A DNA stretch of 64,000 nt from Candidatus Kaiserbacteria bacterium RIFCSPLOWO2_01_FULL_45_25 (GTDB taxonomy: Bacteria > Patescibacteriota > Minisyncoccia > Phycocordibacterales > UBA918). This document shows positions 3,344 to 64,000 of the stretch, piece after piece. Numbering within the stretch: position 1 is the first letter of the stretch; each line of letters opens with the position of its first letter. The position numbers and the translations under genes were made by a program. A model generated the notes under the pieces. The model was not told where the DNA came from and ran no database searches. It was given only the letters and a program-made list of their open reading frames with translations. The stretch lies in contig MFLT01000012.1 of assembly GCA_001781415.1 (NCBI GenBank), positions 6,485-70,484 on the forward strand, in the 5' to 3' direction.

Positions 3344-6166
3344 TTATACAATTAGGTTTAAGATTTTACCAGGTACGTAGATAACTTTCCTAATCTCACC
3401 TGTTAAATACTTTTCAACTCCTTCACTATGACGAGCAGCTTCAAGCGCTTCGGCTTCACTGGCTTCGGGAGAAACTGCAATGGTCCCACGCATTTTACCA
3501 TTAACTTGGACAGCAATTGTGACAATATCATCCACAATCAGACTTTCGTCTGCCTCAGGGAATTTAGTTAGGTGGATTGATTCAGTCTTCCCTGCTGCTA
3601 CCCATAGCTCAGCAGTGAGGTGTGGAGCAAATGGCGCCAAGACTCGAAGGAAGGTCTCGTAGTCACCCGTTGTGATGCCATTTTTTTCCACATGATTAAC
3701 AAACATCATCATGGCACTGATGGCGGTATTGAATTTAAAGGTGGTAATATCCTCGCTCACCTTCTTTATGGTCTTATGAAGAAGTTTGTCAGTGTCGAAT
3801 GCTACATCAACAATATGCTCAGATAGACCGTTCACTCGCTCAAGGAAGCGCCGTACACCAGCGATACCGCCGAGGTCAAACGGATAGTTAGAACCTTCGT
3901 AAGGTCCCATAAAAGCTAAGTACATCTTAACGGTGTCAGCTCCCACCCGCTTCACGTGTTCGTCTGGGTCAATGACGTTACCTTTACTCTTACTCATCTT
4001 GTTGCCGTCTGGACCAAGGATAAGTCCACGATTGAGGCGACGACGGTATGGTTCATTTTCGGTTACCAATCCAAGGTCAAAAAGCACCTTCTGCCAAAAG
4101 CGAGAATACAGAAGGTGCATGGTCGTATGCTCCGCTCCTCCAAAATAAATATCAATCGGCATCCAGTCTTTCTGGTGAGCTAGTGAGGCGATTTCTTCGC
4201 TGTTTTTGTTATCAAGATAGCGCAAGAAATACCAAGACGAATCCACAAAGGTGTCCATCGTTTCAACTTCTGGAGTCCAGCCAGCCCCAAAGATACTTTC
4301 GGTACGCTTCTTCAGCTCCTCACTCTTAGCTAGTGGCGCCACGCCAGTTGGTTTGAAGTCTACATCCTCGGGCAAGTGCCATGGTAAATGTTCCTTTGGA
4401 ATTGGATGAGCGTTGCCCTCCGGGTCATACACAATTGGAATCGGTACACCCCAATAACGTTGCCGGCCAATTGACCAGTCTCGCAAACGGTAGGTTGAAG
4501 ACATCTTGCCGCCAACTTTTTCTACAATCTTTTCTTTTGCTGTTTCAGAGTCCAGGCCATCAAATTCTCCAGAGTTGATAATCACGCCTGTTCCAGTGAA
4601 AATTTGTCCTTCAGTGAAGGCTGCCCAACCCTTCTGGTGTCCTTCCCACGTAAGTAGATTTTTTACCTCTGACTTATCTACCCATTCAATAGTGTGTTTA
4701 CCGTCTTCTAGTTCAGAGGGCTTTTGGTCGAGCGACTTCAACTTGATATGGTAAAAAGAACTTATTGTAAGTTGATTCTTATCCTTGGTGTGTCTGTAGC
4801 CATGACCTTGTGAGGTTGTAACCACATCGCCAATGATTTCATATTCTGTAAATCCAGTTTCTTCTTCTAGTTCGCGTCCAATCGCGACCACTTGTGATTC
4901 CCCGTCAGTCCCTCCACCTACAAAGTGAATGTGGGTATGAGTCCCATCTACTTCCTTTTGAACGAGAAACTGTCCATTTGTTGGGTGTTCAATCATTAGG
5001 TCGACACATTCGCGTACTAGAGTTTCTTTTTCTGGTTTCGGCGCTGAGATGCCAGTGAAAACAATTTTTTCTGCCACCACCTGCTTCACAGGGATGCTGA
5101 ACTTCTTAGCAAACGCACCATCTCTTTCATCATGTGCTGGTACCGCCATAATCGCACCTGTTCCGTAAGAAGCTAGGACGTAGTCAGATATATAAATTGG
5201 AATCTCCTCACCCAAGGCAGGATTGGTAGCCGTAACGCCTTCTAGCTTTACCCCAGTCTTTTCTTTGGTGGTGTCTAGACGGTCTTGCTCGTCTTTTTGT
5301 TTGGCTAGAGCTACATAGTCAGCAACTTCAGCGTAATTACTGATGTTGGCCTCGTTTTGAGCTACTAGTGGGTGCTCTGGAGCGAGAACGAGGTAAGTCG
5401 CCCCGTATAGGGTGTCGGGACGAGTAGTAAAGACAGTAACACTTTCACCAGTTGAAAGTTTGAAGTCTAGCGTCGCACCATTTGAGCGGCCGATCCACTG
5501 TCGCTGCGCTTCTTTGATGTGCTCTGGCCAATCAAGCGGGTCGAGGTCATCAGTCAGTCGGTCAGCGTACTTGGTAATACGAAGCATCCACTGCGGCATC
5601 TCGCGTTTTTCGATGACATCGCCCGAGCGTTCACAAGTGCCATCACTTAGCACCTGCTCGTTGGCAATTACTGTATTGCAGCCTGGACACCAGTTCACAA
5701 TTCCCTTTCCGCGGTACGCAATGTCCTTTCTAAAGAATTCAGTAAACATCCACTGGGTCCACTTGTAGTAGTCGGCGTCTGTTGAGCTGGTGGTCTTATC
5801 CCATGAGAAAGCGTTACCCATACTAGCGAGTTGGGTCTTCATGAAGGCGATGTTGTCGTTGGTCCAGGCTTTAGGGTCGAGATTTCGTTTGATAGCAGCA
5901 TTTTCGGCAGGGAGACCAAAAGCATCAAAGCCCATTGGGTAGAGCACCTGCTTCCCCATCATACGCTTGTAGCGTACGTAGATGTCTGGCACAGCAAAAG
6001 CGTACCAGTGTCCAATATGGAGATTCCCAGACGGGTATGGCCATTCGACGAGGACGTATTCCTTTTCTTTGCTATTGTCTCGCTCTCCGACATTGTATAT
6101 GCCCTCTTCCTCCCAAATCTGTTGCCACTTCTTCTCAATTTCGCCTGAATCAAACTTTTTATGCAT
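3344..6166 (-). CDS. leuS: leucyl-tRNA synthetase with inserted Nudix-box domain
   Basis: HIGH-type (HIGHWYA), KMSKS (KMSKSKGNVI), TTRPDT editing motif, GTGAIMAVPAHDERD; ~120-aa insertion before NSGEFDGLD containing canonical Nudix box GX5EX7REUXEEXGU (GGGTDGESQVVAIGRELEEETGF). Confidence 0.95.
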   Translation of the reverse strand: MHKKFDSGEIEKKWQQIWEEEGIYNVGERDNSKEKEYVLVEWPYPSGNLHIGHWYAFAVPDIYVRYKRMMGKQVLYPMGFDAFGLPAENAAIKRNLDPKAWTNDNIAFMKTQLASMGNAFSWDKTTSSTDADYYKWTQWMFTEFFRKDIAYRGKGIVNWCPGCNTVIANEQVLSDGTCERSGDVIEKREMPQWMLRITKYADRLTDDLDPLDWPEHIKEAQRQWIGRSNGATLDFKLSTGESVTVFTTRPDTLYGATYLVLAPEHPLVAQNEANISNYAEVADYVALAKQKDEQDRLDTTKEKTGVKLEGVTATNPALGEEIPIYISDYVLASYGTGAIMAVPAHDERDGAFAKKFSIPVKQVVAEKIVFTGISAPKPEKETLVRECVDLMIEHPTNGQFLVQKEVDGTHTHIHFVGGGTDGESQVVAIGRELEEETGFTEYEIIGDVVTTSQGHGYRHTKDKNQLTISSFYHIKLKSLDQKPSELEDGKHTIEWVDKSEVKNLLTWEGHQKGWAAFTEGQIFTGTGVIINSGEFDGLDSETAKEKIVEKVGGKMSSTYRLRDWSIGRQRYWGVPIPIVYDPEGNAHPIPKEHLPWHLPEDVDFKPTGVAPLAKSEELKKRTESIFGAGWTPEVETMDTFVDSSWYFLRYLDNKNSEEIASLAHQKDWMPIDIYFGGAEHTTMHLLYSRFWQKVLFDLGLVTENEPYRRRLNRGLILGPDGNKMSKSKGNVIDPDEHVKRVGADTVKMYLAFMGPYEGSNYPFDLGGIAGVRRFLERVNGLSEHIVDVAFDTDKLLHKTIKKVSEDITTFKFNTAISAMMMFVNHVEKNGITTGDYETFLRVLAPFAPHLTAELWVAAGKTESIHLTKFPEADESLIVDDIVTIAVQVNGKMRGTIAVSPEASEAEALEAARHSEGVEKYLTGEIRKVIYVPGKILNLIV

Positions 6167-6240
6167 AACAAATCTCCCTAACCGTTAATTACGGCTTAGT
6201 ATGCCACGGGTTTGGACAGATGTAAAAATTCCTAAATAAA

Positions 6241-6280
6241 AGAAAAGCCGTCCCAAAGGAAGCTTTTCCTGGGGACGGCC
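6241..6280 (-). terminator. intrinsic terminator downstream of the ClpP-like gene
   Basis: GCCGTCCC...GGGACGGC stem plus nested AGGAA/TTCCT, U-run on minus strand. Confidence 0.5.
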
Positions 6281-6319
6281 ATTGAATTAGATGGACACAC
6301 TAGTTGTCGTCGGTTCTTT

Positions 6320-6925
6320 TTAGCGCCGATAGAGAGCTATAAGTTCTTCTTCAGAAATCACTCTGTGCACGATGCCATACTGAACTGCTTCTCGGGCTGA
6401 GAGGGTGGCATTGCCGCGCATCAGGTTCAAAAAGAGGGAAGAAGGAAGACCGGTTTGTTTCGACATGAAATCGAGCATCCACTCTTGTCCACGTCGCAGC
6501 TGATCGTGCCACTGCTTGAGGAACTCCTGCTGTGGACGTTTCGACTGCCGAGCCATTTCTTCTTCAATCTCAAGCGCGTGCTCGACGTCGCAGATGGTCA
6601 CCTCTAAACCTGGACGAAAGATTGTCCTTACTTCATGGAAGAAGTATGTCGATTCAGGTAAAGCGAGACGTTCCCTTCCGAGTAATTGCAAGACAATTGC
6701 AGCCGAGGCAACACGTTCGCCGATTGAGACAAACCCTGAACGCGCGAGAGCTGGTGCCAAGCGTGAAAAGAAGTTGAACGTGCCGCCTGGTGAGTCAATC
6801 ATCACACATGCCGAACCGTAATTTCTCTGAAGTTGCTCGAGGAGTTTTTCGATGCGGTACCCAGAAATCTCTCCTTCAAATTTTGTCATGTACATAATAC
6901 CTCCAAAGGTTGTTTGTTGAGCCAA
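6320..6925 (-). CDS. ClpP/S14-family peptidase-like protein
   Basis: IDSPGG motif (cf. ClpP INSPGG), Ser in GERVASAA, C-terminal ...LSAREAVQYGIV typical of ClpP family; true start may be an internal Met. Confidence 0.55.
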   Translation of the reverse strand: MAQQTTFGGIMYMTKFEGEISGYRIEKLLEQLQRNYGSACVMIDSPGGTFNFFSRLAPALARSGFVSIGERVASAAIVLQLLGRERLALPESTYFFHEVRTIFRPGLEVTICDVEHALEIEEEMARQSKRPQQEFLKQWHDQLRRGQEWMLDFMSKQTGLPSSLFLNLMRGNATLSAREAVQYGIVHRVISEEELIALYRR

Positions 6926-6993
6926 CCAGGAACATATAACAGTATTCGGCTGATGTCAATTTTAATATAATATAGTAAGCGTGCGTAATAAAA

Positions 6994-7425
6994 CTAAACC
7001 CGACCTGGTAGTTCGTCGTCTTTGATATTTAGTAACCAATCAGCCTTTTCTGCTTCCTTGACTTGAGTGAGGAATTTAACTTTCACTAGATCGTTAGCTG
7101 TCTCTAGTTTAGATTCATCGACATCTTCTATATAAACGTACACATCGTACATGTCAGGAGTCTTCGTCTCTACATATTTAAATGGAATCGGTTTTGAACC
7201 GTTCTTATCAATTTTAAACTTAAGCTCATCGGCCAGGGCTCGCTTTAGGGTGTCGTAGGCGGTTTCGTCCCCTAGGGTGAACCCACCAAACCCGGTTATA
7301 AGTGCCGTGTCTGTGATATTTTCAACTGGTAGTTTTTGCAGAAGAATATACCCTTCCTGATTTCGGAGGATGGCTCCGACTGACACAATTCGTCCGTCAA
7401 ACTCTAATTTTGTTTCAAATCCCAT
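6994..7425 (-). CDS. hypothetical small protein, Nudix-like fold with degenerate Nudix box
   Basis: VSVGAILRNQEGYILLQK then GGFTLGDETAYDTLKRALADELKF partially fits GX5EX7REUXEEXGU. Confidence 0.45.
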   Translation of the reverse strand: MGFETKLEFDGRIVSVGAILRNQEGYILLQKLPVENITDTALITGFGGFTLGDETAYDTLKRALADELKFKIDKNGSKPIPFKYVETKTPDMYDVYVYIEDVDESKLETANDLVKVKFLTQVKEAEKADWLLNIKDDELPGRV

Positions 7426-58100: not shown

Positions 58101-61100
58101 CTAATACGATGGTACGGCTAAGTAAACAATTTCGGTTTCATATGATCCGGCTGGCTGAAGCTGATTAACCTTTATTCGATACACTATATCATGGGTATCA
58201 GAACTTGGAATTCCACTATACATCACCTCAACTGGAGTGGTTTCCAGTGCCGCATAAGTGTCTGTGGCCGCAAAGCGAGTAGAGCCATTTTTGAGAGTTG
58301 GATCAGTCACATGATAACCGAAGCAGCCAGTTGAAGTTGGAGCACAGGCGTCCGCCCAACTATCAGGAACCAAGTTAGTGGCCGCAATTGGCGGGATAAA
58401 TACCCCAGCCTGACTTTGAAGTTGCTGACGAGCAAACTTAAATAACTGATAGCCCTCAGTAGCATTACTTTCTACTGTGACACGATGAGCACCGATATAC
58501 TCAGTGCCGAGATTAAGAAAGCCAAACCCAATACCAGTTGGAGAAGACGGGACGTCGGTTATTACTCCTGCTGTTGAAGTGCCTGAGGGTAGCCCACTTA
58601 GGGAGAAGTTCAAATACGGCCCTTCAATCACGAGCGACGGAAATGTATTACTGTCGACATGATTTACCGGAGCGTCGTTTGACACATCATATAAGCGGAA
58701 ATAATACACGGCCTGCACTCGTGCTGCCACCTGTCTGATAGTGAAGCTGTGCTCCTTGGTGGTACTGGCATAATGAATGTCGCCAGTGGCGTACTCTCCT
58801 GATGAGTTGTGAACTCCACAACCAAATCCAGCCCCAGCCACACAGCTATCACTACCAGTAAGTACACTAGTGGTGATGGTTTGATTATCTGGAGAAGACC
58901 CTTCGGCGTAGCACCACAGTGATCCCTCCAAGCAGCTAGAAGTGGCCGTCACATCATAGGCGGTGGCGAAAGTTGGATCCTCTGAATATTGAAGTTTGAA
59001 TTTTATATTGTCACCCTGAACGTTTCGTCGCTCAGTCACGGCAATGCGGAGGGCCAATGTATCATTGTTGGCGATATTAGTTGGAGCCACCTCCTCAAGA
59101 GCCAGTGGCGTCACTGGTGTTTCATTGTTTATGTCACTATACCAACGCCAAACGGTAGTGGCTGGGGTGTAACCAGCGGTTCTAATTTGTGGGTAGTTGT
59201 TATATCCATCAAGCGGAGTACCGTCACTTTTTACGGCTCTAAAACAATAAGTTGATTGTGGGATGGCGCCGTTATGCTCCAGGTGCCAATCGTATTCAAT
59301 ATCATTTCCATCAAGAGTTGGGTACGGATTGGCTACTGTAGGATTTTGTTGAGCCAACGAACCAGAAATATCAGCTACCGAAATTAACAAATCTCCAGGA
59401 TTTGGGGGATTGGTAGACAATGATTGTCCATCGGTGGTAGTGGCTGAGGCAAAACCACGCCAGACTGTACCACTACTAATGGCTCCAACATCAAACCACG
59501 AACCACTATCTATAGCCGAACAAGTAGTAGCGCGCACTCCATATTGTAATTTAAAGTTAACAAACCCAGCGGGCATATTGGCGTTACTAGTTCTGACCGT
59601 CATTCTGATTCGTACCCGATCGCCAGTACCAAGTGGTTCGTCTGCAATGGTAATTGAGGTATTCTCTCCTAGACCAGCCAGATTTGGTGGCCAGGCTTCC
59701 GTTGGAGTTAGTTCACCATTATTGACATAAAAACGATAATAATTCTGACGAAGTGACAAATCAGCCACTGGCCATTCAATCAGTTCTACTCGATACGTCA
59801 TGTTGGTACCAGTGTTACTACGCCAAATTGTGTAAGTAGAGGTACTAGTGAGCCCAAAGCCCGCCAATGGTCTTGGGTAGGTAGTGTTGGCTCCAGCTGC
59901 TCTAGTATTGGCCATAATGGAGGTATTATTTACCGAAGCCACTGGCGTTGGTAAGTTTACAGTCAGAGTTAACGGCCCAGTTCCACCGTTAGTGGCACCA
60001 TTGGAGCGCTGCACATTCATTTCACCTAAACCACTCTGAATATTTTCGACTACCCAAGCTACGGAAGTTTGTTCAACTGCCACACTGGCGCCTGTTTCTA
60101 GTTGGAAAGAAATTGCCCCAATACTAGACAGCCATACTTCGTGACCAAAATGCACGACGTTGGTGGTAGCACCCATCCGTTTCTGAACATGCAAAAAAGT
60201 CCGAGCCAAGCTATTCACAGCGGTGATACTTTCGGTTTCAGTGACACCGGCAGCAGCGTAACTATGTTCTGCTCGTTGTATCTGCCAATTAGTACCCACA
60301 AATTCAACTACCGCATAACTAACATTAGCAATACTGGCACCAGAGGCACCACGTCTAAATACAGGCGACTGAGTCACACTGTCCCACTCGGATGTCACTA
60401 GACCAGCGTAAAAGTTTCGAGAAGCATTACGGTTTTCGACGCCAGTCACAAAGACCACCACGTCACTATCGTTAGTTATTCCAGTCACCGGTGTTCCAGT
60501 AGCAACAACAGTAGCTGTCGTATAAGAGACAGTACCAACCGAACGTACCCTTATCTCGTTGTCAGTATCTTGCTTTCCGATAAACTCAACAATCTCCCAC
60601 TCTACTCTGGTGTTTGAGGTGGCAGCTGGAGGCCTGGTAATGGTAAAGCTGGTAAGTAAATTCTCTGGATTTGATATGTAAGCAGTGACATCGTCAGCGT
60701 TTTGTCCGGCAGTGGCTGAGGTGTTACCCGCACCCGTCTGGTGTGAATTTGTGATGCGCACAAAAGCCAGGCTTGAACTGGCCGGAGCTACATAGTCTGT
60801 ACCAGCCACCAAAGTTGCACTGGTGCCTGAGACTTGGGTTATGCCGCGCTGAATTTTGAAGTCACGTTTGGGAGCAGTAGTTATTTCTGCATAGTTAGTG
60901 TACACAGACAACGGTGTACCATTAGCCGACACTCTAAAACAATAAGTTGTCCCGTATGAGGTAAATTCAGTCGAAGTTATACTGTATTCAAGTTCAACAT
61001 AGTCATTGGTAGGAATACTTGTGCTGGCTGATAGGGATTCAGTGTCACGCACGCCACCATTGGGAGTAATAAAGGTACCAGGTGAATTACTGACTCCTCC

Positions 61101-64000
61101 ACTACCTACAGCCAAGTTGGTGGTATCGCTACCATTAGTCAAAAAAGTAGAGTCAAACATATCCCAACCATCAAGTGATGAATCAACGTCTGTCCAAACT
61201 GTAGCGGTATCACAAGTAGTAATACGTGGTGCGTACTCTAGCCTAAATCTATTCTCAGGACCAGTTACACTTCCAGTGTTTGTAACCGCTAAGCGTAGAC
61301 GAATTGGCGACTCAAGACTAAAGTCAGACAGAAGGGTGTTTTCGGTGCCACCAGTGGCTGAAGTAGCTGCTGTTTCGTTCCCATTATCATTTCGCCAATG
61401 GTAGTTTGTTTGAGTAAGAATTGGACCAACCACCGTTGTCTCTCCAGAGATCATCACTTGACCAGATGGTCCAATACTAGCCCCACCACTAGCCGCCACG
61501 TCGGTGGCTGGAGAATTAATAGCTAGACTGATGGTATCACCGTTATTGGCGTCAGCCGAAACGTCATAGACCACATACAAACAAAGTGTGGCAGTGGTTG
61601 AACTTATGACTGAGTCTGTAAAAATCGCGCTGCCGGCAGTATCGGTAAACCCTCCAGTGACGGTACTACCATACTGACTTTCGGTACCAGCATAAGTCTC
61701 CGATGAGCAGTTATAAGGAGCACTGCTATCTAAATCATAATACAACCTAATATTATCCAGCCCAGCCACTTCATCAATTGTGCCAAGTTCAGTGACCGTA
61801 ACTGAAGTTATGTTACGTGATGAGGAGTTTTCAATAATGGCAAAACTACCGCCGGCATAAACATCACTAGCACCAACGGTGGCATTGGTAGTAAGAGTAC
61901 CCAGACTGGATACAGTAACATCCGAATTGATAGTAACAGTTGGGTAATTTGAATACACACTCAGAGGCTGACCCCCGCCAGTGATACGGAAACAATAGGT
62001 CAATCCCTCCTCGGCTGTACTTGAAGCCATAATAGAAAATTCTGCTTCAAAAAAGTCATTCTGATTAAGGGTCAGTGACGGTGTGGTGTTGTTACTGTCA
62101 CGCAGGGCTCCGTTAGTTGTTAGGTAGTTTGTACTTGGCAAATTTGTCAGTCCGCCGTTACCAACAGTTATGTCGGTAGTATCTGAGCCATCAGTAATAT
62201 TGGACGAGTCAGCCATTTGCCACACGGCACTCACATCACCCACTGTCGACCAAGTGACAATATCTGTACAACTTGGTGCCGCCACACCATACTCAAGACT
62301 ATAAGTAGTAGGTACGCTACTAGTTGAACCTTGATTGGCAATACCAAGACGGAGTCTAATTAATTCCTCTTTTTGTAATGACGTTAATGGAGTATTCTCG
62401 GTGCCACCAGTCGCTGAAGTGGCTCCACTTTCAGAACCATCATCATTACGCCAATGATAAGCAAATTGAGTAAGGCTGGAATCCACTACAGTGGTCGTAC
62501 CAGGAAGTAGCACTGCCGATGAAGGAAACACTTCCAGTCCTCCCGAAACGAGAATGTCGTTAACTGGATCAGCTACCAAAATTTCTATAGTGTCTCCGTC
62601 TTGGGCATTGCTATTGATATCAAACACTACATAAAAACACATTGTCTGAGTTGTATTGATTGAAACTGGTGACGCTGTAAACGAAGCCACACCATCAGCA
62701 CCAGAAAATCCACCTGAGACAGTACCGCCAAATTGTGAATCCCCTCCCGCATAACTTTCAGAACTACAATCGTAGGGAGAGGAAGTATCAAGATCATAAA
62801 ACAGACGCACATTACTGACCGAGCCCTGGGCATCTAGAGTTCCATTTTCTGAAATCACAATTGATGAGACGGTCTGAGCCGACTTGGCATCCAAACTAAA
62901 TGAACCGCCAATATACTGATCAGTCACAGAATTTCTTACTTGACTAACTTGAGTGCCAAGACCGGTGAGAATAATCTGCGGGCCAATGTCAGCTACTGTC
63001 TCTCCATACAAGTCCAAAGCTCCTGATGCGTTATACCAGGTTGTATACAGTCTTTCATAACCCATGAGGTTCATATCAACGCCGTACAAATCACCAGCAG
63101 TAGTTGTGAGTGGGCCAGCTTCAGCATCCCAGGTATTCATATTGTCAGTTGAACGTCTATAGTAAACTCGTCCGGTGGAAGCTGTAGCGAGGGTGTCACG
63201 AATGGAATAGGCAGCGTATATATCACCATTGTTAAGATCACGCCCTACAGCTACCTGATGTAGTCCGCGCCCAGCGATGTTGGTAAACACGTTTGCGGTA
63301 GCAGACCATGAACCAGCAGAAAATATAGCGGTGCGGATATCATGATCAGCAGTCACAAACTCATTGTTATCAGCAGCGTAAACCAAATAAATATCACCGC
63401 TAGCAATATCGACAGTTGCAGCCATACCTACGTCATAAGTGGCATTTCCAGCTGAGGCGGCGTCAATAGTATTAAAACCAGACCAAGAAGAACCATTCCA
63501 AGTACTGGAACGGATAACATGTGTGGTACTACGATTGATGAGCAAAACACTTCCACTTGGTAGTGGCATAAGCAAAGACCAACTGTTAGCGTTGCCTTGG
63601 GGGGCTGTACCAGTTGCAGACCAGTTACCACTAACGCCACAACTGGTGGAGCAGCGTCGGATATGAGTACCATTACTGTCGTCTATGTTTATATAAACAG
63701 TGCCGTCAGTTCCTTTAGTGATTGAGACAACGTTTGTGCCCGCTGCGTAGGTAGTGGCGACCCCGGGCATAGTACTGATACTAGTGGACACAAGTAATGT
63801 GTCGGTAGAAGTGTCAAGGTTATTGTAAAAAATCTCATCGTTACCAGTATCAAAAGTAGCAATGTGAATTATGGTACCAGTATCACCAGGAGTCCACTGG
63901 TCGTACCAAACCGATACTGCCACACAGTCAGTCTGACTATCGACCCGCACTCTTGCCCCCCAAGTATTTCCCCCATCTGTAGTCTTGCTATAAACACACA
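58101..64000 (-). CDS. giant secreted repeat protein (>=1965 aa, N-terminus beyond window) with BNR/Asp-box motifs and >=4 tandem ~190-aa modules
   Basis: frame open to window edge (track 'start' at 63950 is GTG, upstream codons ...YSKTTDGGNTWGAR have no stop); Asp-box-like SKTTDGGNTW, STDNMNTW; modules marked by Y[HR]WRNDxG...IRLR...FRLEY...YCFR...PL..YxNYP. Confidence 0.7.
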   Translation of the reverse strand, partial: CVYSKTTDGGNTWGARVRVDSQTDCVAVSVWYDQWTPGDTGTIIHIATFDTGNDEIFYNNLDTSTDTLLVSTSISTMPGVATTYAAGTNVVSITKGTDGTVYINIDDSNGTHIRRCSTSCGVSGNWSATGTAPQGNANSWSLLMPLPSGSVLLINRSTTHVIRSSTWNGSSWSGFNTIDAASAGNATYDVGMAATVDIASGDIYLVYAADNNEFVTADHDIRTAIFSAGSWSATANVFTNIAGRGLHQVAVGRDLNNGDIYAAYSIRDTLATASTGRVYYRRSTDNMNTWDAEAGPLTTTAGDLYGVDMNLMGYERLYTTWYNASGALDLYGETVADIGPQIILTGLGTQVSQVRNSVTDQYIGGSFSLDAKSAQTVSSIVISENGTLDAQGSVSNVRLFYDLDTSSPYDCSSESYAGGDSQFGGTVSGGFSGADGVASFTASPVSINTTQTMCFYVVFDINSNAQDGDTIEILVADPVNDILVSGGLEVFPSSAVLLPGTTTVVDSSLTQFAYHWRNDDGSESGATSATGGTENTPLTSLQKEELIRLRLGIANQGSTSSVPTTYSLEYGVAAPSCTDIVTWSTVGDVSAVWQMADSSNITDGSDTTDITVGNGGLTNLPSTNYLTTNGALRDSNNTTPSLTLNQNDFFEAEFSIMASSTAEEGLTYCFRITGGGQPLSVYSNYPTVTINSDVTVSSLGTLTTNATVGASDVYAGGSFAIIENSSSRNITSVTVTELGTIDEVAGLDNIRLYYDLDSSAPYNCSSETYAGTESQYGSTVTGGFTDTAGSAIFTDSVISSTTATLCLYVVYDVSADANNGDTISLAINSPATDVAASGGASIGPSGQVMISGETTVVGPILTQTNYHWRNDNGNETAATSATGGTENTLLSDFSLESPIRLRLAVTNTGSVTGPENRFRLEYAPRITTCDTATVWTDVDSSLDGWDMFDSTFLTNGSDTTNLAVGSGGVSNSPGTFITPNGGVRDTESLSASTSIPTNDYVELEYSITSTEFTSYGTTYCFRVSANGTPLSVYTNYAEITTAPKRDFKIQRGITQVSGTSATLVAGTDYVAPASSSLAFVRITNSHQTGAGNTSATAGQNADDVTAYISNPENLLTSFTITRPPAATSNTRVEWEIVEFIGKQDTDNEIRVRSVGTVSYTTATVVATGTPVTGITNDSDVVVFVTGVENRNASRNFYAGLVTSEWDSVTQSPVFRRGASGASIANVSYAVVEFVGTNWQIQRAEHSYAAAGVTETESITAVNSLARTFLHVQKRMGATTNVVHFGHEVWLSSIGAISFQLETGASVAVEQTSVAWVVENIQSGLGEMNVQRSNGATNGGTGPLTLTVNLPTPVASVNNTSIMANTRAAGANTTYPRPLAGFGLTSTSTYTIWRSNTGTNMTYRVELIEWPVADLSLRQNYYRFYVNNGELTPTEAWPPNLAGLGENTSITIADEPLGTGDRVRIRMTVRTSNANMPAGFVNFKLQYGVRATTCSAIDSGSWFDVGAISSGTVWRGFASATTTDGQSLSTNPPNPGDLLISVADISGSLAQQNPTVANPYPTLDGNDIEYDWHLEHNGAIPQSTYCFRAVKSDGTPLDGYNNYPQIRTAGYTPATTVWRWYSDINNETPVTPLALEEVAPTNIANNDTLALRIAVTERRNVQGDNIKFKLQYSEDPTFATAYDVTATSSCLEGSLWCYAEGSSPDNQTITTSVLTGSDSCVAGAGFGCGVHNSSGEYATGDIHYASTTKEHSFTIRQVAARVQAVYYFRLYDVSNDAPVNHVDSNTFPSLVIEGPYLNFSLSGLPSGTSTAGVITDVPSSPTGIGFGFLNLGTEYIGAHRVTVESNATEGYQLFKFARQQLQSQAGVFIPPIAATNLVPDSWADACAPTSTGCFGYHVTDPTLKNGSTRFAATDTYAALETTPVEVMYSGIPSSDTHDIVYRIKVNQLQPAGSYETEIVYLAVPSY

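Follow-up and report, generated by a model that had tools for sequence, protein, structure and literature searches.

A Nudix domain embedded in the CP1 editing domain of a Candidatus Kaiserbacteria leucyl-tRNA synthetase behaves as an exchangeable cassette

The leucyl-tRNA synthetase (LeuRS) encoded in a 64,000-nucleotide stretch of Candidatus Kaiserbacteria bacterium RIFCSPLOWO2_01_FULL_45_25 (contig MFLT01000012.1, positions 6,485 to 70,484; hereafter the window) carries a Nudix domain inside its CP1 editing domain. Comparison with close relatives shows that this domain behaves as a cassette, bounded by the conserved segments AHDERD...KKFG and NSGEFDG, which is lost, duplicated in tandem, or swapped for unrelated Nudix types among closely related genomes. 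The original prediction, made from the window alone, had read a Nudix domain within LeuRS, and our analysis confirms that reading. The host is a bacterium of the Candidate Phyla Radiation (CPR; Parcubacteria/Paceibacteria). Our full-text literature searches turned up no report of a LeuRS, or of any CPR synthetase, with a Nudix domain, nor of cassette exchange in a synthetase; the Nudix domain in LeuRS is, however, already visible in automatic Pfam annotations.

A Nudix fold within the CP1 editing domain

The LeuRS gene occupies 3344..6166 on the minus strand of the window, as do all the features described below, and encodes 940 amino acids (aa) plus a stop codon. The insert, which we designate type A, comprises aa 366-523 (4598..5071) and is thus 158 aa long, larger than the ~120 aa first estimated. 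The Pfam NUDIX profile (PF00293) matches aa 396-508 (4643-4981, in agreement with the predicted location of 4620-4990) over about 13-126 of its 134 positions. The match is significant both in the whole protein (36.4 bits, E 6e-9) and in the excised segment (40.1 bits, E 4.5e-10), above the gathering cutoff of 21.1. The Nudix box, G417-x5-E423-x7-R431-E432-L-x-E435-E436-x-G438-F439 (aa 417-439; 4850..4918), corresponds to the peptide GGGTDGESQVVAIGRELEEETGF, which had been reported to fit GX5EX7REUXEEXGU at every position. The specified positions are indeed present, with the exception of the last U, which is F439 and not Ile, Leu or Val. This is a conservative change, and the final residue of the box is Phe or Tyr in 94% of relatives.

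Structure prediction agrees with the profile match. The full-length AlphaFold model has a mean predicted local distance difference test score (pLDDT) of 88.5 and a predicted template modeling score of 0.78, with pLDDT >90 in the insert region, and the AlphaFold2 model of the insert alone reaches pLDDT 95.6. The profile score, the box and the modeled alpha/beta/alpha sandwich all place the insert in the Nudix superfamily, and the expectation that the sequences flanking the box complete a Nudix fold is borne out by the confident model and the extent of the Pfam coverage. In the full-length model the insert exits from a strand at aa 364-369 and re-enters near aa 527-529, which together form a beta-hairpin; a complete single-domain Nudix fold is therefore predicted to sit in a surface hairpin of CP1.

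The original prediction placed the insertion after the end of the editing region, and in this respect it needs correction. In an alignment with Thermus thermophilus LeuRS, aa 4-365 of the window protein correspond to residues 3-363, and the correspondence resumes with aa 524 at residue 378; the insert stands where the T. thermophilus enzyme has a 14-residue loop (residues 363-378). Of the CP1 editing domain, the N-terminal part (aa 222-365; 5072..5503) matches positions 1-143 of PF13603 (aa 222-367), and the C-terminal part (aa 524-565; 4472..4597) aligns with T. thermophilus from residue 378 onward. The insert splits PF13603 between profile positions 143 and 144 of 185, and once aa 366-523 are removed in silico, one continuous match covers positions 1-183 of 185 (196 bits). 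Since excision rejoins the profile, the insert lies inside the editing domain and not behind it.

The insert is also lineage-specific, by a check that the original prediction had proposed. Neither the T. thermophilus nor the Escherichia coli LeuRS structures contain it, and 11 of the 120 closest LeuRS proteins (64-93% identity; source names Parcubacteria, Paceibacteria and Patescibacteria) show no more than a variable 16-38 aa loop at the site. The other 109 carry a Nudix domain there.

Among 110 insert-bearing LeuRS proteins, spanning all insert types, E432 and E435 are conserved in 100%, E436 in 99%, G438 in 94%, G417 in 93%, R431 in 88% and E423 in 85%, and the full box is kept in 98 of the 110. 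Between the inserts of the window protein and its relative P0004 there are 10 synonymous and 0 non-synonymous differences. The conserved glutamates, the retention of the box and these substitutions together indicate purifying selection on a catalytic Nudix domain. The metal-binding glutamates hardly vary among the relatives, and the module is therefore probably catalytically active.

Exchange of the insert among close relatives

The history of the insert is poorly coupled to that of its host protein. By sequence the inserts form seven clusters with <38% identity between them (89, 6, 5, 4, 4, 1 and 1 members), and all seven alternative insert types tested at the site match Pfam NUDIX at 31-58 bits. 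Type-A inserts have a mean identity of 58%, against 72% for the backbone, and overall insert identity barely tracks backbone identity (r = 0.20). In a neighbor-joining tree of the LeuRS backbone, from which the insert was excluded, the 11 insert-less proteins fall in six or more places, each beside insert-bearing sisters.

Individual pairs make the decoupling clear. P0009 and P0084 have backbones that are 96% identical and inserts that are 23% identical, making the insert the fastest-changing part of a very conserved gene; the corresponding values are 94% and 24% for P0036 and P0115, and 88% and 30% for P0029 and P0106. Conversely, the same insert type occurs on distant backbones in P0075, P0097 and P0109 (backbone 77-80%, insert 66-72% identity). 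The DNA of P0009 and P0084 shows 80-100% identity over the length of the gene, except that it drops to ~45%, the random level, between aa ~358 and ~530, with sharp breaks just after ...KKFG and just before NSGEFD. The left flank contains the editing-site motif GTGAIMAVPAHDERD (aa 335-349; 5120..5164), in which G335-G337, H345 and the conserved editing aspartate D346 are invariant, and DNA identity with relatives breaks off immediately downstream of this motif. The right flank, NSGEFDG, is encoded at 4556-4576.

Three comparisons concern the window gene itself. Relative to P0006, the non-synonymous divergence (dN) of the insert is 0.417 and that of the backbone 0.055. Relative to P0004, the synonymous divergence (dS) of the insert is only 0.106 while that of the backbone is 0.57, and a tract from aa ~263 to ~587, covering the insert and most of CP1, is 93-100% identical, against 77-90% for the remaining gene. 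The insert-less P0017 and P0022 are 80-95% identical to the window in flanking DNA, and the P0017 locus is syntenic with it (DUF5671, a 143-aa weak Nudix protein, LeuRS, rhodanese, sigma-70 region 4/HARE-HTH, DUF8128). The simplest reading of these breaks and tracts is that cassettes are probably exchanged by homologous recombination in the conserved flanks. As near-identical LeuRS proteins do without the insert, the module is likely to be accessory to tRNA charging and not a part of it.

The metagenome-assembled genome SRP062349_co2_256, which belongs to the same species (98-100% identity), has two contigs that stop within the insert (L003 3001-3315 and L011 1-174), as would be expected if population polymorphism of the cassette broke the assembly. 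A candidate for absence of the insert within the species was rejected: this 784-aa member of the window protein's 90% cluster is merely truncated at its N-terminus and keeps the Nudix domain.

Nudix inserts in CPR synthetases

We scanned 1.84 billion cluster representatives with HMMER, using only the insert as query, and recovered 95 proteins in total at E<=1e-3. LeuRS flanks were present in ~50 of the 93 representative matches checked, corresponding to ~50 separate 50%-identity clusters, and each of the 15 long LeuRS matches that we scanned has between one and three Nudix domains, which lie at various points within CP1 or beside it. The fusion is common in CPR bacteria. A second complete Nudix domain directly follows NSGE in P0031, P0036, P0039 and P0054. 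A Ham1/ITPase domain occurs at two different sites, after aa 238 in P0070 and between the catalytic core and the anticodon-binding domain in P0200 (a full domain, aa 984-1167).

Nudix domains of the same subfamily are also found outside LeuRS. One lies inside a methionyl-tRNA synthetase (MetRS), just upstream of the KMSKS segment, at L017 (1-1218), which shows that Nudix inserts are not restricted to LeuRS; the gene contains two in-frame TGA codons, and the organism is a UGA-recoded CPR bacterium that reads TGA as sense. Free-standing members are P0150, whose gene adjoins those of a uracil-DNA glycosylase and another Nudix protein, and P0148 (L016 661-1146), 49 bp upstream of an apparent threonyl-tRNA synthetase gene (1195-1986), which we labeled by eye from its N-terminal sequence. 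P0152, which had seemed to be another free-standing Nudix protein, was rejected as a fragment of this MetRS with in-frame TGA codons. Three further matches of the insert scan (P0130, P0187 and P0198) contain 6-8% Trp and have Trp at positions that should be Gly, as in the sequence GWIEEW of the Nudix box; this suggests that they are genes of UGA=Gly organisms translated with a UGA=Trp table.

A second variable hotspot lies at the start of the editing domain, at aa 226-262 of the window protein (5381-5491), where DNA identity to P0004 is 58-67%. Following aa 237, P0004 and P0026 each contain 13 additional residues, at the same place as the Ham1/ITPase domain of P0070.

The host enzyme

The protein that carries the insert is a LeuRS of the bacterial type. 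It scores 884.3 bits against the NCBIfam equivalog model TIGR00396 (leuS_bact; cutoff 548.4), which identifies it as a member, and matches T. thermophilus LeuRS (1h3n) with a phmmer E of 1e-203. An identical protein is public (OGG69667.1, UniRef100_A0A1F6FGW1, from Candidatus Kaiserbacteria bacterium RIFCSPLOWO2_02_FULL_45_11b) and is named only 'leucine--tRNA ligase' at NCBI. The HIGH motif of the aminoacylation site (aa 50-53; 6008..6019) has H50, G52 and H53 invariant among 109 relatives, as are K723 to K728 at the KMSKS motif (aa 723-727; 3986..4000). In the Thr-rich editing motif TTRPDT (aa 247-252; 5411..5428), T247, T248, R249 and T252 are invariant in the same set, whether or not the relatives carry the insert. 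With these motifs and the GTG...AHD motif all intact, the window protein is a working-type LeuRS.

The enzyme and its relatives lack the leucine-specific domain that T. thermophilus and E. coli LeuRS possess: residues ~580-638 of T. thermophilus LeuRS have no counterpart in the alignment, around aa 719-724 of the window protein. Insert-less relatives (~800 aa) lack it as well, so the Nudix domain is not its replacement. No overlapping open reading frame (ORF) of >=100 aa was found on the plus strand over 4620-4990, and a search of Rfam found no leader and no riboswitch near the gene.

Possible functions of the module

We consider the module most likely, with moderate confidence, to be an autonomous nucleotide pyrophosphohydrolase carried on an essential enzyme. 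It would act independently of leucylation, as a Mg2+-dependent pyrophosphohydrolase of nucleoside polyphosphates, perhaps in the 'house-cleaning' of non-canonical nucleoside triphosphates (NTPs) or of dinucleoside polyphosphates and nucleoside diphosphate derivatives (NpnN/NDP-X). It would be tethered to an essential enzyme that is made constitutively, in an ultra-small cell dependent on nucleotide salvage. We lean toward NTP house-cleaning because Ham1/ITPase, the other classical house-cleaning NTP pyrophosphatase, has been independently recruited into LeuRS. More generally, selection seems to be for nucleotide pyrophosphatases specifically, as all the insert types tested are NUDIX, relatives may carry two or three Nudix domains, and Ham1/ITPase appears at two sites.

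Several observations weigh against this interpretation. The sequence and fold assign no substrate. The insert reaches no cutoff among the NCBIfam equivalogs and is hence assigned to no substrate class; the best of them, RppH (NF001936), gives 25.2 bits where its cutoff is 118, and covers only the N-terminal half with the Nudix box. MutT (TIGR00586 / NF008044) gives no match in NCBIfam at E<=1, and the resemblance to MutT is confined to the level of profile and fold. A PDB profile search and two fold searches likewise return generic MutT/Ap4A/RppH-like similarity, with a top match without known function (the closest solved structure is 2azw of Enterococcus faecalis, for which no function is known). 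Autonomous house-cleaning would also leave unexplained why the host is so nearly always LeuRS, and the presence of very different Nudix types on near-identical backbones looks more like diversifying exchange than housekeeping. Finally, the box is degenerate in the four sequences of one insert type, where Ala replaces the Arg, Gln the first Glu and Ser the Gly, and this type may be inactive.

Alternatively, the module could clean up after the synthetase itself, by hydrolyzing diadenosine tetraphosphate (Ap4A), diadenosine triphosphate (Ap3A) and similar compounds, which aminoacyl-tRNA synthetases make in a side reaction of the aminoacyl-adenylate with ATP. Such an arrangement would put the hydrolase at the source. 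Y457 is a tyrosine 18 residues past the Nudix box, and a downstream Tyr is presumably a marker of ApnA hydrolases. We nevertheless regard this explanation as unlikely. The fold resembles Ap4A hydrolases no more closely than it does the MutT, NudI, DIPP or RppH types, the parallel Ham1/ITPase inserts indicate NTP sanitation instead, and the many Nudix types found at one site speak against a single fixed substrate. LeuRS, moreover, is not known to be among the strong producers of Ap4A.

It is tempting to speculate more broadly that CP1 of CPR LeuRS, and occasionally another class I synthetase, serves as a docking platform for interchangeable pyrophosphatase cassettes that are exchanged under diversifying, conflict-type selection. 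At least seven Nudix types would be accommodated, as would Ham1/ITPase and tandem arrays with as many as three members, with recombination swapping cassettes between strains, and the cassettes might destroy toxic or signaling nucleotides, or repair phage- or toxin-attacked tRNA ends at the place where tRNA is charged. If this is true, an essential translation enzyme would be the carrier of a variable defense or detoxification module; at present we think it rather improbable.

Another proposal, to which we give a smaller chance again, has the module working on the ends of RNA or tRNA bound by LeuRS. It might remove 5' pyrophosphates or caps in the manner of RppH, or repair a tRNA whose 3' end is chemically blocked (by toxin-driven pyrophosphorylation, for instance), in which case the swapping of types would reflect an arms race with phages or toxins. 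CP1 binds the CCA end of tRNA during editing, and the insertion sits in this very domain. The best partial NCBIfam matches are to RNA pyrophosphohydrolase, and BdRppH and RppH are among the fold matches. The decoupled histories of insert and backbone, together with the presence/absence polymorphism, resemble loci under conflict, and there are weak matches to the candidate-defense Nudix family PDC-S07 of PADLOC-DB. These last matches (13.6-34.8 bits) lie over the Nudix box region, however, and probably reflect the generic box; the RppH score is far under its cutoff, and a viral structure library gives only generic Nudix matches. The neighboring genes (rhodanese, the sigma-70 region 4/HARE-HTH protein and the ClpP-like ORF) are not defense genes, and we see no sign of tRNA-end damage systems in these genomes.

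Least probable, in our judgment, is a passenger or structural role, with the domain either persisting because of its conserved site in an essential gene, as inteins do, or serving as a non-catalytic ligand-binding or scaffolding domain. The patchy distribution among near-identical backbones, the site between two highly conserved motifs, the lower GC content at third codon positions (0.367 in the insert, 0.481 in the backbone), the degenerate-box type and the unrelated inserts of some LeuRS proteins (a DUF559/REase-like, endonuclease-like domain at aa 366-468 of P0157 and a serine hydrolase, PF06821, at aa 606-757 of P0199) would all fit. Yet the near-invariance of the catalytic glutamates (99-100% across all types) and the clear purifying selection oppose it, and a merely permissive loop would not predict a Nudix domain in all eight insert types seen. 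An intein or other mobile element was rejected: NUDIX is the sole above-cutoff Pfam match in the insert, with no Hint, intein or homing-endonuclease domain, and the model shows a plain Nudix fold. Our search for terminal repeats flanking the insert found only short repeats at chance level.

Relation to known systems

The window protein shares its architecture and its catalytic and editing motifs with bacterial LeuRS enzymes that have a CP1 domain (T. thermophilus 1h3n and 2byt, E. coli 4aq7); it differs from the T. thermophilus enzyme in the Nudix domain that fills the hairpin and in the missing leucine-specific domain. The solved MutT-like Nudix proteins of a single domain (2azw, MutT, NudI, NudJ/YmfB, NUDT2/aq_158/CT771 and RppH/BdRppH) are free-standing, whereas the insert is embedded, and it is only 15-23% identical to any of the solved single-domain structures. 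A precedent for a small-molecule enzyme domain on a class Ia synthetase is the NCBIfam family NF040702 ('isoleucine--tRNA ligase, N-acetyltransferase domain-containing'), in which host (IleRS) and guest (GNAT) both differ from the LeuRS/Nudix pair. Inteins, too, lie in frame between conserved motifs of essential genes, are patchily distributed and spread among related genomes, but their Hint splicing domain and homing endonuclease are absent here; unlike inteins, the Nudix insert is probably retained in the mature LeuRS as a folded domain, as the models suggest. A synthetase with an embedded accessory enzyme therefore has precedent, and a recombining cassette of multiple types is an added feature that is apparently undescribed.

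Aminoacyl-tRNA synthetases are among the most conserved enzymes, and a second, unrelated catalytic domain inside a proofreading domain is unusual in bacteria. Such inserts occur widely within one of the largest uncultured radiations of bacteria and offer a natural system in which to study domain insertion and cassette exchange within an essential gene. They may also help to explain how ultra-small cells that scavenge nucleotides maintain a clean nucleotide pool, or clean tRNAs. Natural pairs with and without the insert at ~90% identity, such as the window protein and P0017 or P0022, make the biochemistry directly testable.

Neighboring genes and other features of the window

Far from LeuRS, a 1,949-aa ORF (58101-63950) has no Pfam match at E<=1e-5. 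Closer by, a 143-aa ORF two genes upstream of LeuRS (6994-7425) is a weak Nudix match (PF00293, 22.9 bits) with a box that appears degenerate by eye (RALADE in place of REUxEE). It is found at the same place in L001, L014 and L015, with or without the insert in LeuRS. The gene directly upstream of LeuRS (6214-6990; ORF 6320-6925) encodes a 201-aa ClpP-like protein that matches only the C-terminal part of PF00574. Syntenic relatives have a 207-aa HAD_2 hydrolase in its place, in an interval without DNA similarity to the window, which looks like a local gene replacement.

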